From NCBI RefSeq assembly GCF_011045215.1, contig NZ_CP049201.1: a DNA stretch of 64,000 nucleotides. One strand, 5' to 3'. Shown one piece after another: positions 2,191 to 12,197 of the stretch (position 1 is the stretch's first letter; each line of letters opens with the position of its first letter). The notes below the pieces were generated by a model that was given only the letters and a program-made list of their open reading frames with translations, did not search any database and was not told the DNA's origin. Made by a program: the position numbers and the translations under genes. Source of the stretch: Escherichia coli (GTDB taxonomy: Bacteria; Pseudomonadota; Gammaproteobacteria; Enterobacterales; Enterobacteriaceae).

Positions 2191-3237
2191 TTAAAAATCT
2201 TTCGTTATTTCTCTGACCGTCTGATTAAAACGTTCCTCTTCCAGTTCCACGCCAATCGCCCTGCGTCCCAGCAACAGTGCCGCTTTTATCGTGGAACCTG
2301 ACCCCATAAAAAAATCTGCGACCAAATCGCCTGGACGGCTGCTGGCAGTAATTATCTGACGCAACATATCCGCCGGTTTTTCACAGGGATGTTTGCCCGG
2401 ATAATACTGCACGGGCTTGTGCGTCCAGACATCCGTATAAGGAACGACAGCCGATACGGAAAAATAACGCCGCAGTGATTTGTATTCCTCCAGCAGGCTG
2501 ACATATTGCCGGTTCAGTTCGCTGTATGTGCTGACCAGCTGGTGATGTGGCTGCTCCAGTTCACCGCGCTGGTGTTTTTCTGCCGCCACACGTGCAAACA
2601 GCGCCTGCAGTTTACTGTAATCGGCCTCATTCGGTAACTGCCACTGACTGGTACCAAACCAGTGCGAAACCATGTTTTTCTTTCCGGTGGCTTCAGCTAT
2701 CTGTTTTGACGTTATCCCCAGTGATTCACGCGCATCACGGAAGTAAGAAATCAGCGGGGCCATCACGTGCTGTTTAAGCTCGCGCCCCTTTGCCGCATAG
2801 CCGTCATTTTTTGGCTGGTATGGCCCCTGATAATGTTCAGCAAACAGAATGCGCTCTGTTGCCGGGAAATACGCCCGCAGGCTTTCCTTGTTGCACCCGT
2901 TCCAGCGTCCGGACGGCTTCGCCCAGATAATGTGGTTCAGCACATTAAAGCGCTCACGCATCATGATTTCGGTGTCAGATGCCAGGCGATGACCACAGAA
3001 CAGGTAAAGACTTCCGGCAGGCTTCAGTACCCGCCAGAACTGCGCCAGACATCGGTCCAGCCATTGCAGGTAATCATCGTCGCCCTTCCACTGGTTATCC
3101 CAGCCCTCGGGCTTCACTTTAAAGTATGGCGGGTCTGTGACTATCAGATCGACAGAGTTTTCCGGTAATGTCCGGATAAATTCCAGGCAATCCGCGTTGA
3201 TTAACTCACAACTGGATATTTTTACAGTATTAGCCAT
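2191..3237 (-). CDS. DNA methyltransferase (N6-adenine or N4-cytosine type), orphan
   Basis: 348 aa with DPPY motif near N-terminus (LIVTDPPYF) and FxGxG AdoMet motif near C-terminus (FFMGSGST); no nuclease recognised alongside. Confidence 0.85.
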   Translation of the reverse strand: MANTVKISSCELINADCLEFIRTLPENSVDLIVTDPPYFKVKPEGWDNQWKGDDDYLQWLDRCLAQFWRVLKPAGSLYLFCGHRLASDTEIMMRERFNVLNHIIWAKPSGRWNGCNKESLRAYFPATERILFAEHYQGPYQPKNDGYAAKGRELKQHVMAPLISYFRDARESLGITSKQIAEATGKKNMVSHWFGTSQWQLPNEADYSKLQALFARVAAEKHQRGELEQPHHQLVSTYSELNRQYVSLLEEYKSLRRYFSVSAVVPYTDVWTHKPVQYYPGKHPCEKPADMLRQIITASSRPGDLVADFFMGSGSTIKAALLLGRRAIGVELEEERFNQTVREITKDF

Positions 3238-4928: not shown

Positions 4929-5309
4929 TCAAGATTCCACTTCGGCATCCATTTCTAAACTTACATCCAACATACTCAGGCAACCGTCGATAAACCCTTC
5001 AGCCATCTGTATCTCTATACGTATCAATTTCTCATCCTTCCAACGCGCCTTTGCAATCTTGCGCTTGGATATCCTGTATAAATAATGTGCCACAAGAAGC
5101 GAATGCTCATAAGGCCTTTTTTGCTTTAAACAAGCAAGACAACCTTCAATAATTAATGCGTCACTATCTGAACAAGCCAGGCGTTTCTTACTGGTATAGG
5201 GCAGAAGTCCCTTAAACCCGGCAGCTATAGGTGAATAGTCCACACCCGAGCTATCACTAGCCGCCCATGCCCCCCAACGCTCAAGAACCATCTGAATATC
5301 ACGCGCCAT
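4929..5309 (-). CDS. late-gene antiterminator Q (QuuD/DLP12-type)
   Basis: MARDIQMVLERWGAWAA...IAAGFKGL...LEMD matches the remembered QuuD sequence; sits after rusA as in lambdoid nin-Q regions. Confidence 0.75.
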   Translation of the reverse strand: MARDIQMVLERWGAWAASDSSGVDYSPIAAGFKGLLPYTSKKRLACSDSDALIIEGCLACLKQKRPYEHSLLVAHYLYRISKRKIAKARWKDEKLIRIEIQMAEGFIDGCLSMLDVSLEMDAEVES

Positions 5310-5670
5310 CGTTACCACCTGTAATTTCGTAAATCTTCACACCCAGCCGACCACCAGGTACGCGCTGACCGCGCACAATATTAATTTCATCAAACTGCTC
5401 GTCGTCGATAAGCAACCCCGCATGTGTCAGTGCATCCAGTGGTGCTTTCAGAATATTGTCCAGGTCACGACGGCGCTTATCCGGTGGCTCTGCAGTAATT
5501 TTTATTGCCAGCCTTCCGGACAGATTTAATTTCAGCCGCTGCTGGCGAACAATGAGCGCCACATCACGGCGATAACGCTCACCGGCTTTTGATACAAAAT
5601 ATGTGCTGCCACGACGTCGCCAGTAGGTGTTTACCGTCGGCGGGTAAGGCAAAACAAACTCTATACGCAT
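5299..5670 (-). CDS. rusA: RusA-family Holliday junction resolvase
   Basis: 123 aa; PPTVNTYWRRRGSTY and RRRDLDN motifs match RusA. Confidence 0.85.
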   Translation of the reverse strand: MRIEFVLPYPPTVNTYWRRRGSTYFVSKAGERYRRDVALIVRQQRLKLNLSGRLAIKITAEPPDKRRRDLDNILKAPLDALTHAGLLIDDEQFDEINIVRGQRVPGGRLGVKIYEITGGNDGA

Positions 5671-7267: not shown

Positions 7268-7400
7268 CTCCCCTTAAGGGGACCATCCTTCTTCTCCCTG
7301 CGCGCCAATCAAGTAATGAGATTCTATTTCCCCCGTAATTAGCCTCAAGAACAACAAATCACAAAAACACAAAAAGCCTGTTTGATTAAAAATAATCGTA

Positions 7401-7424
7401 ACAAAAAACCCGCCGAAGCGGGTT
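7401..7424 (-). terminator. rho-independent terminator downstream of hok
   Basis: AACCCGC-cgaa-GCGGGTT hairpin at 7407-7424 preceded on plus strand by AAAAAA, so T-run follows on minus strand. Confidence 0.45.
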
Positions 7425-7492
7425 AAGTGCGGGTGCGTTGAGGATGCCTGACACATCAGAGGTGGCGAGGGATTTCTCCCCCGCCAGGTCTC

Positions 7493-7648
7493 TTACTCCT
7501 CAGATTCGTAAGCTGTGAAGACAGCGACCTCCGTCTGGCCGGTTCGGATTCGTACCTCGCAGAGGTCTTTCCTCATTACCAGTGCCGTCACTATGACGGT
7601 TAAACAGATGACGATCAGGGCGATTAACATCGCCTTTTGCTGCTTCAT
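7493..7648 (-). CDS. hok: Hok/Gef-family type I toxin
   Basis: MKQQKAMLIALIVICLTVIVTALVMRKDLCEVRIRTGQTEVAVFTAYESEE is near-identical to remembered HokD; AAGGAG 7 nt upstream. Confidence 0.85.
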   Translation of the reverse strand: MKQQKAMLIALIVICLTVIVTALVMRKDLCEVRIRTGQTEVAVFTAYESEE

Positions 7649-7705
7649 AGCCTGCTTCTCCTTGCCTTTCGGCACGTAAGAGGCTAACCTACGTTTGTGT
7701 AGCAT
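7493..7705 (-). CDS. mok-like overlapping reading frame
   Basis: In-frame N-terminal extension (MLHKRRLASYVPKGKEKQA) upstream of the hok ATG, as in hok/mok/sok loci. Confidence 0.45.
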   Translation of the reverse strand: MLHKRRLASYVPKGKEKQAMKQQKAMLIALIVICLTVIVTALVMRKDLCEVRIRTGQTEVAVFTAYESEE

Positions 7706-8102
7706 AGATTGGGCCTCAGATTAATGTTAAGCGTCTTGCCGGACGCGTAATGTTAACTGGGGCTTTTCTCTGTCTGCCTTACAGTGGCATGCCCGAGGCA
7801 GACAGCCTCAGGCACCCGCAACAATCTTACCGACACCGATAAGAAAACGCTATTTTTTATTGCCAGAACCTTCTGCCCAGGCTAATGTATCCGCGTCAGA
7901 ACGGCGCAATGCGCTCGCCTGAGATACGTTTACTTGTCATTGGTGGCAACAGATAACGGCAATTGTTGTTTCTGTTTGTTTCCTTCAAAAACCCCGGACC
8001 ATCAATCCGGGGTTTTTGTTTGTTATCCCCAGCGGCAAATCGAATACACCATCAGCGCCACCGCCATCGCAATTCCTGCCGTTGTGAATGCTTCAGGCCA
8101 GG

Positions 8103-8465
8103 TCATCGTAAAATATCCTCCACGCTTATCAGTCCGTTTCGCTCCAGGTAGTCCATCACCTTATCCGGCAGTTTGCAGTCCGGCTTCGCTTTCCTCAGTT
8201 GCCAGGTTAACTGCTTTACCTGCATGGTTAACTCGTCGACCAGACGCTGATACCCCACTGGTTTGTATTCATAAAATTTACCAACTGGCGCTGCTGCCAG
8301 CGATTGCAGTGCAATTTCCAGAACAGCAATATCCATCTTATATGCGCGAATGAGGTCATGGTCGATTGTACCTGGTATGCACAGTCTCTGTGATTCAATA
8401 GTCTCCTCTGCGTGGGCTATTAACTGCTCTTTGGTAAACCGTTCTTCTTTGGTCAAAGTCGCCAT
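8103..8465 (-). CDS. hypothetical phage protein
   Basis: 120-aa ORF in early-right operon; starts 1 nt after stop of upstream small ORF. Confidence 0.5.
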
Positions 8466-8466
8466 T

Positions 8467-8640
8467 TTATTCTTCCTCTTCGTCTTTTATTTCGTGATAT
8501 GAGTAATTGCAGTGATTAAAGAAAACATCAATTGCCTCGTTTTCTATTTCCTCAGGAATCGCGTCATCATCCACTTCAAATACATCTTCACGCACGCCAC
8601 CAACAATCCTCGTTTCGATAACTATTTTGAATTTTCGCAT
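8467..8640 (-). CDS. small acidic hypothetical protein
   Basis: Hand-translated 57-aa ORF ([57 protein letters not shown]), GGTGG upstream, tightly coupled to next gene; below ORF-track cutoff. Confidence 0.35.
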
Positions 8641-8730
8641 TGTCTTACCACCATTTCTGGCAGTCTCCTGATGTTCTGAGGGTGCAGAAATCCCTCCGGT
8701 TAAGGATTTTATTTTCGATAATAATATTGG

Positions 8731-9087
8731 TTATTCTGGTCTGGTTTTTGTCGCCCTGCGTATCCGCGCTTTCACATTGCGCTCAATCTGAATTAGCTTT
8801 TCTATATTTTTACGTCTTTCCCGTTCCTCCTGACGCAATTGTTTTACATCATCTGCCAGTCTGGTTTCTCTTTTCGCCACAGAGAGCATCCAGTCAAATG
8901 GCTCCACAACTGCACCGCAGATTTTACAACGGACCTGACGCTCTTTTTCATCAACCCTGACAGAGGCGTGATGGCAATATGGTTTCTCCGATGACTCATA
9001 AAGAAAATTAACCTGATTACGTGGGTCATCCTCTTTTACCGGAAATAAAACAATATTACTTAACTCATCTTCTGGTTTTATTTCCAC
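8731..9087 (-). CDS. hypothetical zinc-ribbon protein with basic coiled-coil tail
   Basis: Track ORF trimmed to GTG at 9085-9087 with AAGGAG 6 nt upstream, overlapping upstream TGA; contains CHH...CKIC. Confidence 0.45.
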   Translation of the reverse strand: MEIKPEDELSNIVLFPVKEDDPRNQVNFLYESSEKPYCHHASVRVDEKERQVRCKICGAVVEPFDWMLSVAKRETRLADDVKQLRQEERERRKNIEKLIQIERNVKARIRRATKTRPE

Positions 9088-9088
9088 G

Positions 9089-9418
9089 TCACTCTCCTTT
9101 GATGCGAATACCTGCCACACGTAGTGCATGCTCCAAATCAGCCAGATAAAGCCAGCGTCCATGCTCTCTGGGCATCATGACATATTGCTCATCGGCATTT
9201 ATCGGATGACCCCTTCGAAGGTCATAGCAAGTCGGTAACTGCACTGTCCTTGCTTCCAGCTCTGCAATGCGTTTATCTCTGGCTTCCAGTTCGTCCAGTA
9301 ACGCCAGCACAACCTGCGGTGTGACTTTCATGCGAAACGCCAGCAGTTTCTGAGGTGTGGACACTGTTTTTATTGCCTCTGCCACATCACGCAACGCCTG
9401 GTTGTTAATCTGATTCAC
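9089..9418 (-). CDS. hypothetical phage protein
   Basis: 109-aa ORF, start overlaps stop of upstream gene. Confidence 0.5.
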   Translation of the reverse strand: MNQINNQALRDVAEAIKTVSTPQKLLAFRMKVTPQVVLALLDELEARDKRIAELEARTVQLPTCYDLRRGHPINADEQYVMMPREHGRWLYLADLEHALRVAGIRIKGE

Positions 9419-9756
9419 TGCATCACCTCACGATTCCTCAACCAGATACAAACCGGTCCATCCTCGGTGTCATGAATGGAGCCAATAAACCAGCCCTCAC
9501 CCTCTGGTCGTTCAGGTTCCCATGCGGAAATATCGGGACCATCTGCATCCGGGTTAAAATCATCTTCATCCATACTGCGAATAGTCCACTGAAGATTATT
9601 TACCTTCATCCAGGCGTTAAATTCTTCCGTCGAAATATACTCCCGGCCATCACAAAATTTTTCATATTCAGGATGCGTCCAGCAGCCATATTCATCACGT
9701 TCTACCGGCAGTTCTTTGATTTCAATCAAAACATTAACTCCATTAAGATAATGCAA
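9415..9756 (-). CDS. hypothetical phage protein (acidic)
   Basis: 113-aa ORF in operon register. Confidence 0.5.
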   Translation of the reverse strand: MHYLNGVNVLIEIKELPVERDEYGCWTHPEYEKFCDGREYISTEEFNAWMKVNNLQWTIRSMDEDDFNPDADGPDISAWEPERPEGEGWFIGSIHDTEDGPVCIWLRNREVMQ

Positions 9757-9925
9757 AACAAATTAACCACACCACGACAACCGATGCTATTAACACCCTG
9801 ATTGCAAACAGCGGGCTGATATGTCGAAAAGGATTTTCCCAGATAATAAAAGCCGCTGCCAGAAATGCACTGATAAGTAAAACAATAACAAACAGCTCAA
9901 TTTTGATTATCCAGAACATATTCAC
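9743..9925 (-). CDS. small hydrophobic membrane protein
   Basis: 60-aa ORF, almost entirely hydrophobic. Confidence 0.35.
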   Translation of the reverse strand: MNMFWIIKIELFVIVLLISAFLAAAFIIWENPFRHISPLFAIRVLIASVVVVWLICFALS

Positions 9926-10212
9926 TGCATCGCCTTCTGTAAAATAACCGCATGCCCCAGCTTCTCCGCCAGCGCCAGTTCTGCCTTAGCACCCGCCGAC
10001 CGCTGCCAGCCATTCAGCATGTAAATCGCATCCACGCAACGTATCATCGCCATGCAGATATCCATGTACTGCGACTGAGTCAGTCCGTCCGGAAGTACTG
10101 CCGGGTTTAAGACGGTATGCCCTTCCCGTTTCAGTTCCTCTTCCGCTTTGTGAAACGCCTCACGGTTGAAGTTTTCATGGCCAGTCATCGGCCCTGCGAC
10201 ATAAACCTTCAT
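9922..10212 (-). CDS. DUF4406-like protein (nucleoside 2-deoxyribosyltransferase-like fold)
   Basis: N-terminus MKVYVAGPMTG is characteristic of this family. Confidence 0.55.
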   Translation of the reverse strand: MKVYVAGPMTGHENFNREAFHKAEEELKREGHTVLNPAVLPDGLTQSQYMDICMAMIRCVDAIYMLNGWQRSAGAKAELALAEKLGHAVILQKAMQ

Positions 10213-10658
10213 ATCGTTTTTACTGTCCCTTTATTGTCCCTGTAAAACATCAAAACCCGCTGCATAACATCGCTATTCCGGCACTCACGACAGATTATGT
10301 TCTGACGCCTGTCATAGCGGCGTATTTCTCCATCTGGTAATGAATAAATCAGGTCTGGGTCGCTCTTTTTCTTCGCTCTGTTTTTCTTCACTCCCCCTTT
10401 CGCGATCTTTTGGTGAGCCCTTTCCCAGTCCCTGTGCGCCTGCTCAGACGGAAATACCCCGTAGTCAGAGTTGTACACCTCACCGCTGGCAGCAAGCTCT
10501 CTGGATAAGCGACCGGTAGTGACTCTGCTGACACCCGTTTTATCTGCCAACTGCTGATGTGTTTCTCGCCCACTCTGGCGTACGAGCTCCACAATGCGCG
10601 CCTTCACTTCTTCCCGTTGTTCGTGTGTGAAAGGTTTTGCCATAAGCGCCTCCGGCAA
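10209..10658 (-). CDS. hypothetical phage protein, possible DNA-binding
   Basis: 149-aa ORF, basic, overlaps neighbours by 4 nt. Confidence 0.5.
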   Translation of the reverse strand: MPEALMAKPFTHEQREEVKARIVELVRQSGRETHQQLADKTGVSRVTTGRLSRELAASGEVYNSDYGVFPSEQAHRDWERAHQKIAKGGVKKNRAKKKSDPDLIYSLPDGEIRRYDRRQNIICRECRNSDVMQRVLMFYRDNKGTVKTI

Positions 10659-11468: not shown

Positions 11469-12197
11469 CTAACCAACATTTGAACGCCAGCTCTCCCAGT
11501 TAAAATTCACCCAGCGACCACCGTTCATGGTCATGCGGTCCATCACGCGCTCGCCAAGCAGCGTATTCATTGCCGTATGGTTCAGGTTCGTCAGCATCCC
11601 GACGCTGTGCATCGAGGCTGTTCTGCGATCGACTATCTGGTTCAGTGTGACCTGTTCGTTACGCGTATCCCGCTGCATACCAATTTCATCCAGGACAAGC
11701 AGGTCAACTTCACACAACCCCTGCAAAAATTTTTCGCCCGAGTTTTTGTTGTCGTAGTTGCCGTGTAACGCCAGCATCACATCCGCCACCGTCACCACAA
11801 TCACGCTGCGACCTTTCGCCAGAAGATGGTTGCCAATGGCTGCTGCCAGATGATTCTTTCCGGTACCCGGCTTACCGCTGAACACGAAATTTGTGCATCC
11901 GGTCATCATTTCTTCCGCGATGGATTTTGCCTGGCTCAGCGCGTGGCGTTGGCCATCGTTCTTCACCTGGTAATTCGCAAACGAACACTTCTGGTGCAAC
12001 AGTTGGATACCGGAACGCTTCATAATTTTCTCCACCCGGATCTGGCGATTCTGGCGGTTAATTTCCTCACTACGCTTTCGCCCTTCTGCAAGCTGCCACT
12101 CTCGCCACTCGTCCACTGTCCGGTACGGCGCGGTTACATGCTGCGGGGCCAGCTTACGGATACGCTCAAGAACACCACCTGCCGCAATATTTTTCAT
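11469..12197 (-). CDS. DnaC/IstB-like replicative helicase loader
   Basis: Walker A FSGKPGTGKNHLAAAIG and Walker B LLVLDEIG; position equivalent to lambda P / Rac YdaV. Confidence 0.85.
   Translation of the reverse strand: MKNIAAGGVLERIRKLAPQHVTAPYRTVDEWREWQLAEGRKRSEEINRQNRQIRVEKIMKRSGIQLLHQKCSFANYQVKNDGQRHALSQAKSIAEEMMTGCTNFVFSGKPGTGKNHLAAAIGNHLLAKGRSVIVVTVADVMLALHGNYDNKNSGEKFLQGLCEVDLLVLDEIGMQRDTRNEQVTLNQIVDRRTASMHSVGMLTNLNHTAMNTLLGERVMDRMTMNGGRWVNFNWESWRSNVG

Follow-up and report, generated by a model that had tools for sequence, protein, structure and literature searches.

The run of small genes from 9418 to 8023 on the minus strand of the window (the whole 64,000-nucleotide stretch of Escherichia coli DNA that was analysed) is very probably a polycistronic block of accessory genes in the nin-equivalent region of a Rac/lambdoid-type Escherichia prophage, in which a zinc-ribbon protein is translated from GTG 9087..9085 and a 57-codon ORF is a real gene of the DUF7167 family; the layout of the block further suggests translational coupling at several junctions and a split ribosome-binding site in its one long spacer. 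Both small genes are real prophage genes and are already catalogued; what is less ordinary is the 62-base leader between them, which bears hairpins, is widespread and carries no annotation.

Organization and prophage context of the block

The genes of the block, as read from the sequence, all lie on the minus strand. In the direction of transcription, the block and the element that closes it comprise:

9089..9418, minus strand: ead/Ea22-like gene, 109 aa; GTG start 9418..9416, stop TGA 9091..9089
9094..9099, minus strand: Shine-Dalgarno sequence AAGGAG, within the last codons (K-G-E) of the ead/Ea22-like gene, 6 nt (AGTGAC, 9093..9088) before the GTG of the next gene
8731..9087, minus strand: zinc-ribbon gene, 118 aa (phrog_1621, 84 loci); GTG start 9087..9085, stop TAA 8733..8731
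8647..8708, minus strand: conserved intergenic cassette, 62 nt
8467..8640, minus strand: DUF7167 gene, 57 aa (PF23768, phrog_1997); ATG start 8640..8638, stop TAA 8469..8467
8103..8465, minus strand: 120-aa gene (phrog_660); ATG start 8465..8463, preceded by GAGGAA
8023..8106, minus strand: 27-codon hydrophobic ORF; ATG 8106..8104, GGAGGA 9 nt upstream
7986..8018, no strand assigned: terminator-like hairpin with a 13-bp stem and A and T runs on either side, closing the block

The block is flanked by a DnaC/IstB-like replication gene and a Ren-like/DUF977 gene on one side, and by RusA and the antiterminator Q on the other:

11469-12197, minus strand: IstB/DnaC-like gene, on the replication side
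5299-5670, minus strand: RusA, on the Q side
4929-5318, minus strand: Phage_antitermQ, the late antiterminator Q

In its original genetic definition the nin region contains transcription terminators that are bypassed by antitermination, and the order in lambda is P-ren-nin genes-Q. The initial annotation had placed these genes in a nin region, and by position the label is right, the block lying on one strand between the replication genes and Q. As in lambda, a Ren-like gene follows the replication genes, a Holliday-junction resolvase (RusA here) precedes Q, and the small ORFs are densely packed, the stop of one overlapping or abutting the start of the next. In other respects the gene content departs from that of lambda, with ead/Ea22-like, DUF4406, DUF1627, hok/sok and DUF968 genes. 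A terminator/promoter scan of 7400-10400 returned a single terminator-like site, the one at 7986-8018.

The first gene of the block scores 40.1 bits against the Pfam Ead_Ea22 profile (cut-off 27). In E. coli C7 the ead/Ea22-like, zinc-ribbon, DUF7167 and 120-aa genes follow each other in the same order, with identical starts and 1-nt junctions; the DNA is 93% identical, and PGAP uses there the same models for the ead/Ea22-like and the 120-aa genes. The Rac prophage of K-12 lacks the zinc-ribbon gene, the DUF7167 gene and the cassette, and hence no K-12 gene name applies. None of five proteins of the block matched a defence system in PADLOC, and a search of NCBIfam returned nothing useful.

Start codon and product of the zinc-ribbon gene

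Comparison of related loci shows the 118-aa protein to be translated from GTG 9087..9085, in frame with the ORF 9162..8731, by means of AAGGAG 9099..9094, as had been proposed in the initial annotation. At the homologous position the start codon is ATG in 78 of 84 loci and GTG in the other 6, AAAGGAG is kept in 82 of the 84, and the length of the product is constant (118-119 aa). Homologues from Klebsiella, Kluyvera, Erwinia, Pluralibacter, Yersinia and Salmonella, with 46-72% identity, all begin at the aligned position, as does the phrog_1621 match, which starts at residue 1. The predicted anti-Shine-Dalgarno duplex for this GTG (-8.7 kcal/mol) is the best among the four in-frame candidate starts, and the same start is picked by PGAP in E. 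coli C7 (WP_077898318.1, a 118-aa hypothetical protein); the protein of the window is identical to NCBI EJF6670144.1. A start further upstream, with which the gene would run, in another frame, over the 3' end of the ead/Ea22-like gene, could be argued from the fact that ATG 9162 opens the longest ORF (143 aa), with ATG 9129 and GTG 9120 as further candidates, and from the many GenBank entries in which the protein is longer, at 132, 137 or 143 aa, the 132-aa version representing a cluster of 3282 members. Such a start is very improbable: the upstream extension is absent from the homologues of other genera and ranges from 1 to 29 codons among the close loci, the duplex for ATG 9162 reaches only -2.9 kcal/mol, ATG 9129 has a GGAG just 0-1 nt before it, and PGAP/RefSeq uses the 118-aa model. 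The database entries of 132 to 143 aa are thus probably over-extended.

The product matches phrog_1621 over its full length (E 1.4e-55, residues 1-117 on profile positions 1-120 of 134). Its predicted layout (AF2, pLDDT 73) consists of an acidic, disordered N-terminus, a ribbon with the putative ligands C38-x-H40 and C54-x2-C57, and, over residues 63-115, a long basic helix at the C-terminus. Among 26 sequences C54 and C57 never vary, while the conservation of C38 and H40 is at least 90%, and with strands predicted at 43-46 and 51-54 the ribbon would carry four conserved zinc ligands on two beta-hairpin knuckles. The TFIIB-type zinc ribbon is its best match in both Pfam (PF08271, 21.6 bits, E 1.6e-4, below the gathering cut-off of 29) and Foldseek (PDB 1pft, probability 0.95 but E 0.17), sharing the Cys/His-x...Cys-x2-Cys ligands and the two beta-hairpins; it differs in the first ligand pair, which is C-x-H here and C-x2-C in TFIIB, and in the fusion to a 50-residue basic helix that TFIIB ribbons do not have. 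Searches of the PDB by fold and by sequence profile gave no significant relative for this protein or for the DUF7167 protein. It might be speculated, with low confidence, that the ribbon with its conserved basic helix binds nucleic acid or a partner protein, as a putative early-expressed accessory factor.

The 57-codon ORF as a DUF7167 gene

The short acidic ORF that the initial annotation had pointed to at 8467-8640 has, by comparison, been found to be a real, full-length DUF7167 gene. Its product contains 18 D+E against 6 K+R (pI 4.3), matches Pfam DUF7167 with 36.0 bits against a gathering cut-off of 24.4 (E 7.3e-9, residues 2-53 on profile positions 1-60 of 60) and aligns end to end with phrog_1997 (positions 1-57 of 57). 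The products of both ORFs are beyond chance, because of this Pfam score and of matches with E of 8e-24 to phrog_1997 and in the 1e-55 range to phrog_1621. Relatives are represented by 59 clusters in a library of 1.84 billion proteins; 28 aligned members measure 52-69 aa and nearly all start with M-R/K, and identity within the family goes down to 32% (36-42% among the full-length members aligned). The gene is under purifying selection (dN/dS 0.15-0.16 at dS ~0.8). Its AF2 model, a beta-hairpin followed by a helix (pLDDT 88), resembles proteins of phAPEC8 and of Lactococcus phage 949 with TM up to 0.88 in BFVD, where all matches are uncharacterised phage proteins.

That the ORF might be a chance open frame, unexpressed, in AT-rich spacer DNA could be suggested by its shortness and by the weakness of its proximal Shine-Dalgarno-like GGUGG, which lies inside a hairpin arm; against a Pfam score above the cut-off, a family that keeps length and start down to 32% identity, the low dN/dS and a confident model that matches proteins of unrelated phages, this is barely conceivable. 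A read-through fusion with the zinc-ribbon gene was also considered, the two sharing a frame with one TAA and 30 sense codons between them, and was dropped in view of the majority variant, which has a TAA directly before the ATG.

The protein of the window is identical to NCBI EJF6670143.1 ("DUF7167 family protein"), and the model in E. coli C7 is WP_163428211.1. With the other members of PF23768/phrog_1997 it shares a length of ~55-60 aa, the M-R/K-K start, the "FEV-DDDAT-EEIE" core and the acidic tail. Members of the family differ in what precedes the gene: the distant ones have an ordinary Shine-Dalgarno sequence and are tightly coupled to the gene before them, whereas in E. coli lambdoid prophages the 62-nt leader cassette stands in that place. 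Literature searches for "DUF7167" and for sequence strings of the cassette found no papers. As a low-confidence guess, the acidic protein could be a small inhibitor or mimic, expressed early and binding host or phage targets.

Gene junctions and probable translational coupling

At the junction of the ead/Ea22-like and zinc-ribbon genes, which reads ...AAA GGA GAG TGA C GTG GAA, the stop TGA 9091..9089 is separated from the GTG by C 9088, so that the overlap of start and stop assumed earlier does not exist there. The only true GTGA overlap nearby is found one gene upstream, where the GTG of the ead/Ea22-like gene forms GTGA (9418..9415) with the TGA 9417..9415 of the preceding ORF. Downstream, the DUF7167 and 120-aa genes meet at TAA-A-ATG (8469..8463), with the single base A 8466 between them, and the ATG of the 27-codon ORF forms ATGA (8106..8103) with the TGA 8105..8103 of the 120-aa gene. 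The genes at these junctions share a strand, their stops and starts overlap or lie within a few nt, and the AAGGAG of the zinc-ribbon gene sits in the last codons of the gene before it, an arrangement suggesting that ribosomes terminating on one cistron probably re-initiate on the next at 9091/9087, 8469/8465, 9418 and 8106. Translational coupling of this kind would also account for the tolerance of a weak GTG start in that lineage in which the preceding gene stops at this very point.

The DUF7167 gene would be the exception, being preceded by a spacer that holds the portable cassette. It had been described as filling the gap before the next gene with a 1-nt spacer, and it does stand 1 nt from the next ATG, but between the zinc-ribbon stop (TAA 8733..8731) and ATG 8640 there remain 90 nt (8730..8641) of non-coding DNA. 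Likewise, the tight packing ascribed to the block holds for the 1-nt junctions and overlaps, but the block is not seamless, this structured spacer persisting in its middle.

The 27-codon ORF and the end of the block

The hydrophobic ORF that overlaps the 120-aa gene is likely to be the last cistron before the terminator. A regex search across all loci examined recovered 62 copies in 43 distinct nucleotide variants, 60 of the 62 keeping the length, and tblastn gave 67 matches; the distinct codon changes comprise 28 synonymous and 34 non-synonymous ones, and its Shine-Dalgarno duplex is predicted at -9.3 kcal/mol. No Pfam or PHROG family was found for it. The hairpin at 7986..8018, judged by its flanking A and T runs, is potentially a bidirectional terminator.

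It had also been remarked that short genes are easily missed in this region. For the two genes in question this does not hold, both exact proteins being present in NCBI; it fits better the 27-codon ORF at 8106..8023, which PGAP/RefSeq has left unannotated in the related loci examined. On the whole, the earlier observation is partly confirmed and its interpretation supported, and as given it matters little: since both small genes are already catalogued, and annotated by PGAP in a related locus, the finding is an ordinary one.

The 62-nt intergenic cassette

The spacer before the DUF7167 gene contains the cassette followed by AAGACA (8646..8641) and ATG 8640. The elements read from its sequence are:

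8696..8692 pairing with 8682..8678, minus strand: hairpin 1, GAGGG with CCCTC
8669..8665, minus strand: AGGAG, 24 nt before ATG 8640
8664..8647, minus strand: hairpin 2, GC-rich, 18 nt, ACTGCCA-GAAA-TGGTGGT

The cassette turns up in 44% of complete E. coli genomes (2371 of 5426) and, among the matches listed, lies under no annotated feature. Identity exceeds 95% in 2342 of 2376 E. coli records, and the cassette is found between many unrelated gene pairs, with at least 10 families upstream and at least 6-7 downstream, always in the orientation of the flanking genes and, in most contexts, with the next start codon 5-8 nt after hairpin 2. AGGAG is nearly invariant; of six downstream gene families, five lack a Shine-Dalgarno sequence after hairpin 2, and in one context the gene brings its own GGAG there. 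In the window copy AGGAG is the only good Shine-Dalgarno sequence of the spacer; its 24 nt from the start exceed the ~15 nt that mark a split initiation region, and the only nearer Shine-Dalgarno-like sequence, GGUGG, is the 3' arm of hairpin 2.

The predicted energy of hairpin 2 is -8.1 kcal/mol in the window copy and -15.5 kcal/mol in the majority copy. Covariation is thin, as the copies are 93% identical on average: 96% of the cells are paired, double changes occur in only 3 cells affecting 2 pairs, and 1 of 500 shuffles reaches the score; in the window copy the stem has undergone 5 substitutions and retains all 7 of its 7 pairs (P 0.005-0.06). The covariation test for hairpin 1 is biased, its arms having been fixed by the search pattern, and the leader as a whole folds no better than shuffled sequences do (z of -0.6 in the window copy and of -1.8 in the majority copy).

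A Rfam search of 7400-9400 (E up to 1) gave no match in 8641-8730, returning only sok and weak matches elsewhere. An intrinsic terminator was rejected, the terminator/promoter scan having returned nothing in the cassette. A nut/boxB-like site was discarded as well, no boxA-like sequence being seen by eye, the loop being a tetraloop rather than a pentaloop, and the element lying far from the early promoters; so was a Chi site, the window carrying AATGGTGG and not GCTGGTGG.

It may be proposed that the cassette acts as a split ribosome-binding site, as a recombination linker, or as both. If hairpin 2 is formed, the 18 nt that it occupies between AGGAG and ATG would be looped out and the effective spacing would become 6 nt, which on geometry would make the cassette a self-contained split ribosome-binding site. 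Split initiation regions have been described for genes 38 and 25 of phage T4 (Nivinskas 1999; Malys and Nivinskas 2009; PMC3014915), in which an intervening hairpin shortens the distance between Shine-Dalgarno sequence and AUG from 22 to 5 nt in gene 38 and from 27 to 11 nt in gene 25 (PMC3014915). The T4 regions and the cassette (24 to 6 nt) have in common a Shine-Dalgarno sequence more than 20 nt from the AUG and a hairpin, a predicted one in the cassette, between them; the likeness, drawn here from sequence geometry, comes with unrelated sequences and with a cassette that is portable and precedes many genes.

A linker without any role in translation is a serious possibility, though short of probable. 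The cassette would then be a short shared joint for the exchange of gene cassettes among lambdoid prophages by homologous recombination, kept uniform through that exchange, its hairpins being incidental or acting on DNA. The many combinations of upstream and downstream families that it joins favour this reading, as does its uniformity while the flanking DUF7167 genes differ by dS ~0.8; module exchange at linker sequences has been proposed for lambdoid phages (Juhala 2000 and Hendrix 2000, as cited in PMC4546147, an indirect citation and all that literature searches on such linkers gave). The constant orientation relative to the flanking genes, the start codon mostly 5-8 nt beyond hairpin 2, the near invariance of AGGAG and the fact that all five substitutions in hairpin 2 of the window keep the pairing argue against a linker only, and the two roles can coexist.

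The minimum-free-energy fold pairs UCCU 8706..8703 with AGGA 8669..8666 of the Shine-Dalgarno sequence, around hairpin 1, a pairing that would repress rather than help initiation of DUF7167. From this fold, whose columns are invariant, and from the ability of CCCUC to pair with GGAGGG or AGGAGG, the cassette could be read as a repressor or as an element of mRNA processing or stability. Its hairpins would then either shield the 5' or 3' end of a processed transcript or mask the Shine-Dalgarno sequence, and DUF7167 expression would be uncoupled from the upstream genes. This reading appears unlikely, the outer helix having only 4 bp with no covariation and being missing from the centroid structure, and the cassette containing no terminator-like T-run and matching no Rfam family.

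A double role for 8708..8647 is a doubtful but possible reading, in which a portable split ribosome-binding site, whose GNRA-capped hairpin would bring AGGAG(G) next to a start 5-8 nt past the stem, would at the same time be the homologous joint at which accessory cassettes are swapped in E. coli lambdoid prophages.

Implications

The RefSeq models for the two small genes, 118 aa from a GTG start for the one and a DUF7167 protein of 57 aa for the other, have been confirmed as right, and a conserved 27-codon membrane-peptide ORF, which RefSeq does not annotate in the related loci examined, has come to light as a by-product. If the double role of the cassette is true, each incoming gene would bring its expression signal along or be inserted behind an existing one, and the cassette would be the lambdoid equivalent of what is seen at T4 genes 38 and 25, though a mobile one, present in ~44% of E. 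coli genomes; common and unannotated as it is, it could explain how swapped accessory genes are expressed in lambdoid prophages.

Gene layout and junctions

All genes in this part of the window are carried on the minus strand, and from position 9418 to position 8103 reading of the sequence gives the following order.

Features between 9418 and 8103
Stop TGA 9417..9415, minus strand: 113/104-aa ORF
Start GTG 9418..9416, stop TGA 9091..9089, minus strand: ead/Ea22-like gene
GTG 9087..9085 to TAA 8733..8731, minus strand: zinc-ribbon frame
8730..8641, minus strand: non-coding gap of 90 bases between the zinc-ribbon stop and the DUF7167 ATG
ATG 8640..8638 to TAA 8469..8467, minus strand: 57-codon ORF (DUF7167)
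ATG 8465..8463 to TGA 8105..8103, minus strand: 120-codon ORF

A single base separates the ead/Ea22-like TGA from the zinc-ribbon GTG (C 9088), as well as the DUF7167 TAA from the ATG of the 120-codon ORF (A 8466), and the AAGGAG at 9099..9094 lies within the final codons of the ead/Ea22-like gene, six bases 5' of the GTG (AAA GGA GAG TGA C GTG). The initial annotation was thus right in its coordinates, in the Shine-Dalgarno (SD) sequence and its spacing and in the 1-nt spacer downstream of the 57-codon ORF, and its interpretation of the GTG start and of the 57-codon gene is supported; it erred in having the zinc-ribbon GTG overlap the upstream TGA, since C 9088 intervenes, and in having the 57-codon ORF fill a gap of which 90 bases stay non-coding. 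The true GTGA overlap of the block lies at 9418..9415, where the GTG of the ead/Ea22-like gene covers the TGA of the preceding ORF (GAGGTGAT upstream), and this geometry appears to have been misassigned to the zinc-ribbon gene. Stop-1nt-start junctions and 4-nt overlaps such as these are typical of translationally coupled genes, and every SD there is located within the preceding gene; ribosomes ending on the upstream cistron would re-initiate at these sites.

The zinc-ribbon gene and its start codon

The start was compared between the window and 83 loci homologous to it, 80 of them on IMG/VR contigs and 3 in annotated E. coli genomes. At the position of 9087..9085, 78 of the 84 loci have ATG and 6 have GTG, with AAAGGAG preceding this codon in 82/84; 82 loci encode a product of 118 aa and the other 2 one of 119 aa, and the frame left open 5' of the codon varies from 1 to 29 codons. 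Homologues with 46-72% identity from Klebsiella, Kluyvera, Erwinia, Pluralibacter, Yersinia and Salmonella all start at the aligned residue, with the N-terminus M-(T/S)-T-E-T-E-x-E-L-S-N, and the phrog_1621 profile alignment begins at residue 1. Among four in-frame candidates, GTG 9087 is predicted to have the best SD pairing with the anti-SD (-8.7 kcal/mol, at a spacing of 5-6 nt); the duplex of ATG 9162 reaches only -2.9 kcal/mol, and the GGAG preceding ATG 9129 is misplaced. The same start is picked by PGAP in E. coli C7, a related annotated genome, and the exact 118-aa protein is deposited as EJF6670144.1, so that the proposed GTG start holds. In the GTG variant the upstream gene stops right there (GAGTGACGTG), whereas in the ATG variant it continues for a 23-nt overlap; the re-initiation proposed for these junctions would account for the tolerance of GTG in precisely the lineage whose upstream stop abuts it.

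Public versions of 132, 137 and 143 aa, one of them representing a 3282-member cluster, would on this evidence be over-extended. Start sites are inconsistent across databases (P0048, 132 aa; P0235, 137 aa; P0039/P0057, 143 aa), and thousands of entries carry non-conserved N-terminal extensions overlapping the upstream gene. The ribbon motif has led one JGI entry to be named 'ribosomal protein S27E'.

The predicted label 'zinc ribbon' is a fair description of the protein. Of the predicted ligands, C54 and C57 show no variation, and conservation of C38 and H40 is at least 90%; the structural model (pLDDT 73) has an acidic disordered N-terminus, a two-hairpin ribbon (43-61) and a 50-residue helix (63-115; pLDDT 80-96) with the nearly invariant motif RRxNIEKLIQIERNAKARIR. 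The TFIIB ribbon comes first both in Pfam, with 21.6 bits and so below the cut-off (29), and in Foldseek, with 1pft at E 0.17, which leaves membership of the TFIIB family unsupported. No solved structure was found among the sequence relatives.

The DUF7167 gene

The proposal that the 57-codon ORF is a genuine gene was borne out by several observations. It matches Pfam DUF7167 (36 bits, cut-off 24.4) and phrog_1997 over 57/57 positions. When 1.84 billion cluster representatives were searched exhaustively with HMMER, 59 relatives with E up to 1e-3 turned up, mostly of 52-69 aa, nearly all starting M-R/K-K and sharing the core 'FEV-(D/E)DDAT-EEIE...F-N-C-Y-G/S' and an acidic tail. Comparison of the window gene with the allele commoner in E. 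coli gives a dN/dS of 0.15-0.16, with dS about 0.8. The AlphaFold model, a beta-hairpin and a helix, is confident (pLDDT 88) and superposes on uncharacterised 57-aa phage proteins of phAPEC8 (TM 0.88) and Lactococcus phage 949; comparison with the PDB gave no match. Regarding the start, the window has no in-frame ATG, GTG or TTG between the zinc-ribbon TAA and ATG 8640, and the majority allele has a TAA immediately 5' of the ATG. The exact window protein is EJF6670143.1, 'DUF7167 family protein', whose accession adjoins that of the zinc-ribbon protein. The family matches, the dN/dS, the start evidence and the exact NCBI entry therefore establish 8640..8467 (minus strand) as a real, full-length and already annotated gene.

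The zinc-ribbon and DUF7167 ORFs share a frame, with one TAA and 30 sense codons between them (8731-8640, minus strand); a read-through fusion probably has no significance, given the second TAA in the commoner allele. In P0011 (87 aa, 139-member cluster) and P0003/P0006/P0008, database proteins of one common DUF7167 allele, the canonical ATG is altered (…GGSERRKFK…) and gene callers take an ATG 27 codons upstream, with the frame running through the intergenic cassette described below (MNFIKSLTGGISAPSEHQEAARKGG…); this allele is either a pseudogene or starts at an alternative site that extends the protein. The corresponding upstream frame of the window is open and has no start codon.

An intergenic cassette upstream of DUF7167

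The gap contains a cassette of two hairpins flanking an AGGAG, the second hairpin being GC-rich and GAAA-capped, which ends 6 nt before the DUF7167 ATG.

8708..8647, minus strand: cassette, 62 nt, AATCCTTAACC-GGAGGG-ATTTCTGCA-CCCTC-AGAACATC-AGGAG-[ACTGCCA-GAAA-TGGTGGT]-AAGACA-ATG

The window holds a single copy; copies occur at 3009 places in 2371/5426 complete E. coli genomes, never under an annotated feature among the matches listed. By BLAST of the region against phage genomes, the cassette alone matches several phages including Rac-SA53, mEp460 and phiSTEC1589-Stx1c, where it is unannotated and lies a few bases 5' of unrelated ead/eae-region genes. Pooling the hits of an IMG/VR pattern scan with the loci already compared yields 102 distinct contexts, with at least 6 unrelated downstream and at least 10 upstream gene families in many combinations, the orientation always being that of the flanking genes, and in most of them a start codon follows hairpin 2 by 5-8 nt. 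An Rfam search found no family for the cassette, and a literature search by its sequence found no paper.

The only strong SD before DUF7167 is this AGGAG (-7.4 kcal/mol), which is AGGAGG (-10.3 kcal/mol) in most copies; it lies 24 nt 5' of the ATG, a spacing that would fall to 6 nt without the 18-nt hairpin 2. The cassette may act as a split ribosome-binding site, an arrangement of SD, hairpin and AUG that has been demonstrated experimentally for T4 genes 38 and 25 (PMC3014915). Over 73 distinct variants, 96% of the cells of hairpin 2 are paired; compensatory changes are seen at two of its pairs (G-C to A-U and C-G to A-U), and the observed covariation score was reached by 1/500 shuffles. Five stem substitutions set the window copy apart from the consensus, with 7/7 pairs kept (P about 0.005-0.06 by transition bias). 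Against this reading, the copies, at 93% identity, are too alike for strong covariation; the fold of the whole leader is no better than that of shuffles; a UCCU pairs with the SD in the minimum-free-energy fold; and one downstream family has its own GGAG after the hairpin. Distant DUF7167 genes use ordinary SDs and have no cassette, which also indicates that the cassette belongs to E. coli lambdoid prophages and not to the gene. Equally compatible is a role as a recombination linker, a concept cited in PMC4546147, which fits the combinatorial flanks; the linker and split-site roles could coexist.

Prophage context and other small ORFs

The neighbourhood of the block includes the following features.

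11469-12197: IstB/DnaC-like replication gene, upstream side
9743-9925, minus strand: 60-aa ORF with two hydrophobic stretches (MNMFWIIKIELFVIV...), GTG over the DUF4406 TGA (GTGA 9925..9922)
8106..8023, minus strand: 27-codon hydrophobic ORF, ATG overlapping the TGA of the 120-aa gene (ATGA), GGAGGA 9 nt upstream
7986-8018: terminator-like hairpin, downstream side
7403-7817, minus strand: hok/sok type I toxin-antitoxin locus, Hok-like ORF 7493-7705
7643-7817, minus strand: sok RNA match, 109 bits (cut-off 59)
4929-5318: antiterminator Q, downstream side

Other upstream neighbours are DUF1627, a DUF977/Ren-like gene and DUF4406, and further downstream lie DUF968, RusA, a DNA methylase, a holin and a lysin. 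The label 'nin-region' is justified by position, with replication genes on one side and RusA and Q on the other. K-12 Rac has a similar replication module but lacks this gene block; among complete genomes, E. coli C7 comes closest (93% identity), and proteins identical to the zinc-ribbon and DUF7167 products occur together on an E. coli contig. Also at 7403-7484 (minus strand) are a terminator-like hairpin and an isrK-like match that, at 30.5 bits, stays under its cut-off of 50.

The 60-aa ORF is unannotated by PGAP in E. coli C7, has an exact hypothetical protein in NCBI, and matched no family in Pfam and PHROG searches. The 27-codon ORF gave 67 tblastn hits, kept its length in 60/62 copies across the loci compared, and is also found after a different upstream gene; its distinct codon changes number 28 synonymous vs 34 non-synonymous. 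It lacks PGAP annotation in related RefSeq loci and is a 'bacteriophage protein' in some GenBank records. The zinc-ribbon and DUF7167 genes are already known, as annotated families; what goes beyond existing annotation is only the cassette and this conserved 27-codon ORF.
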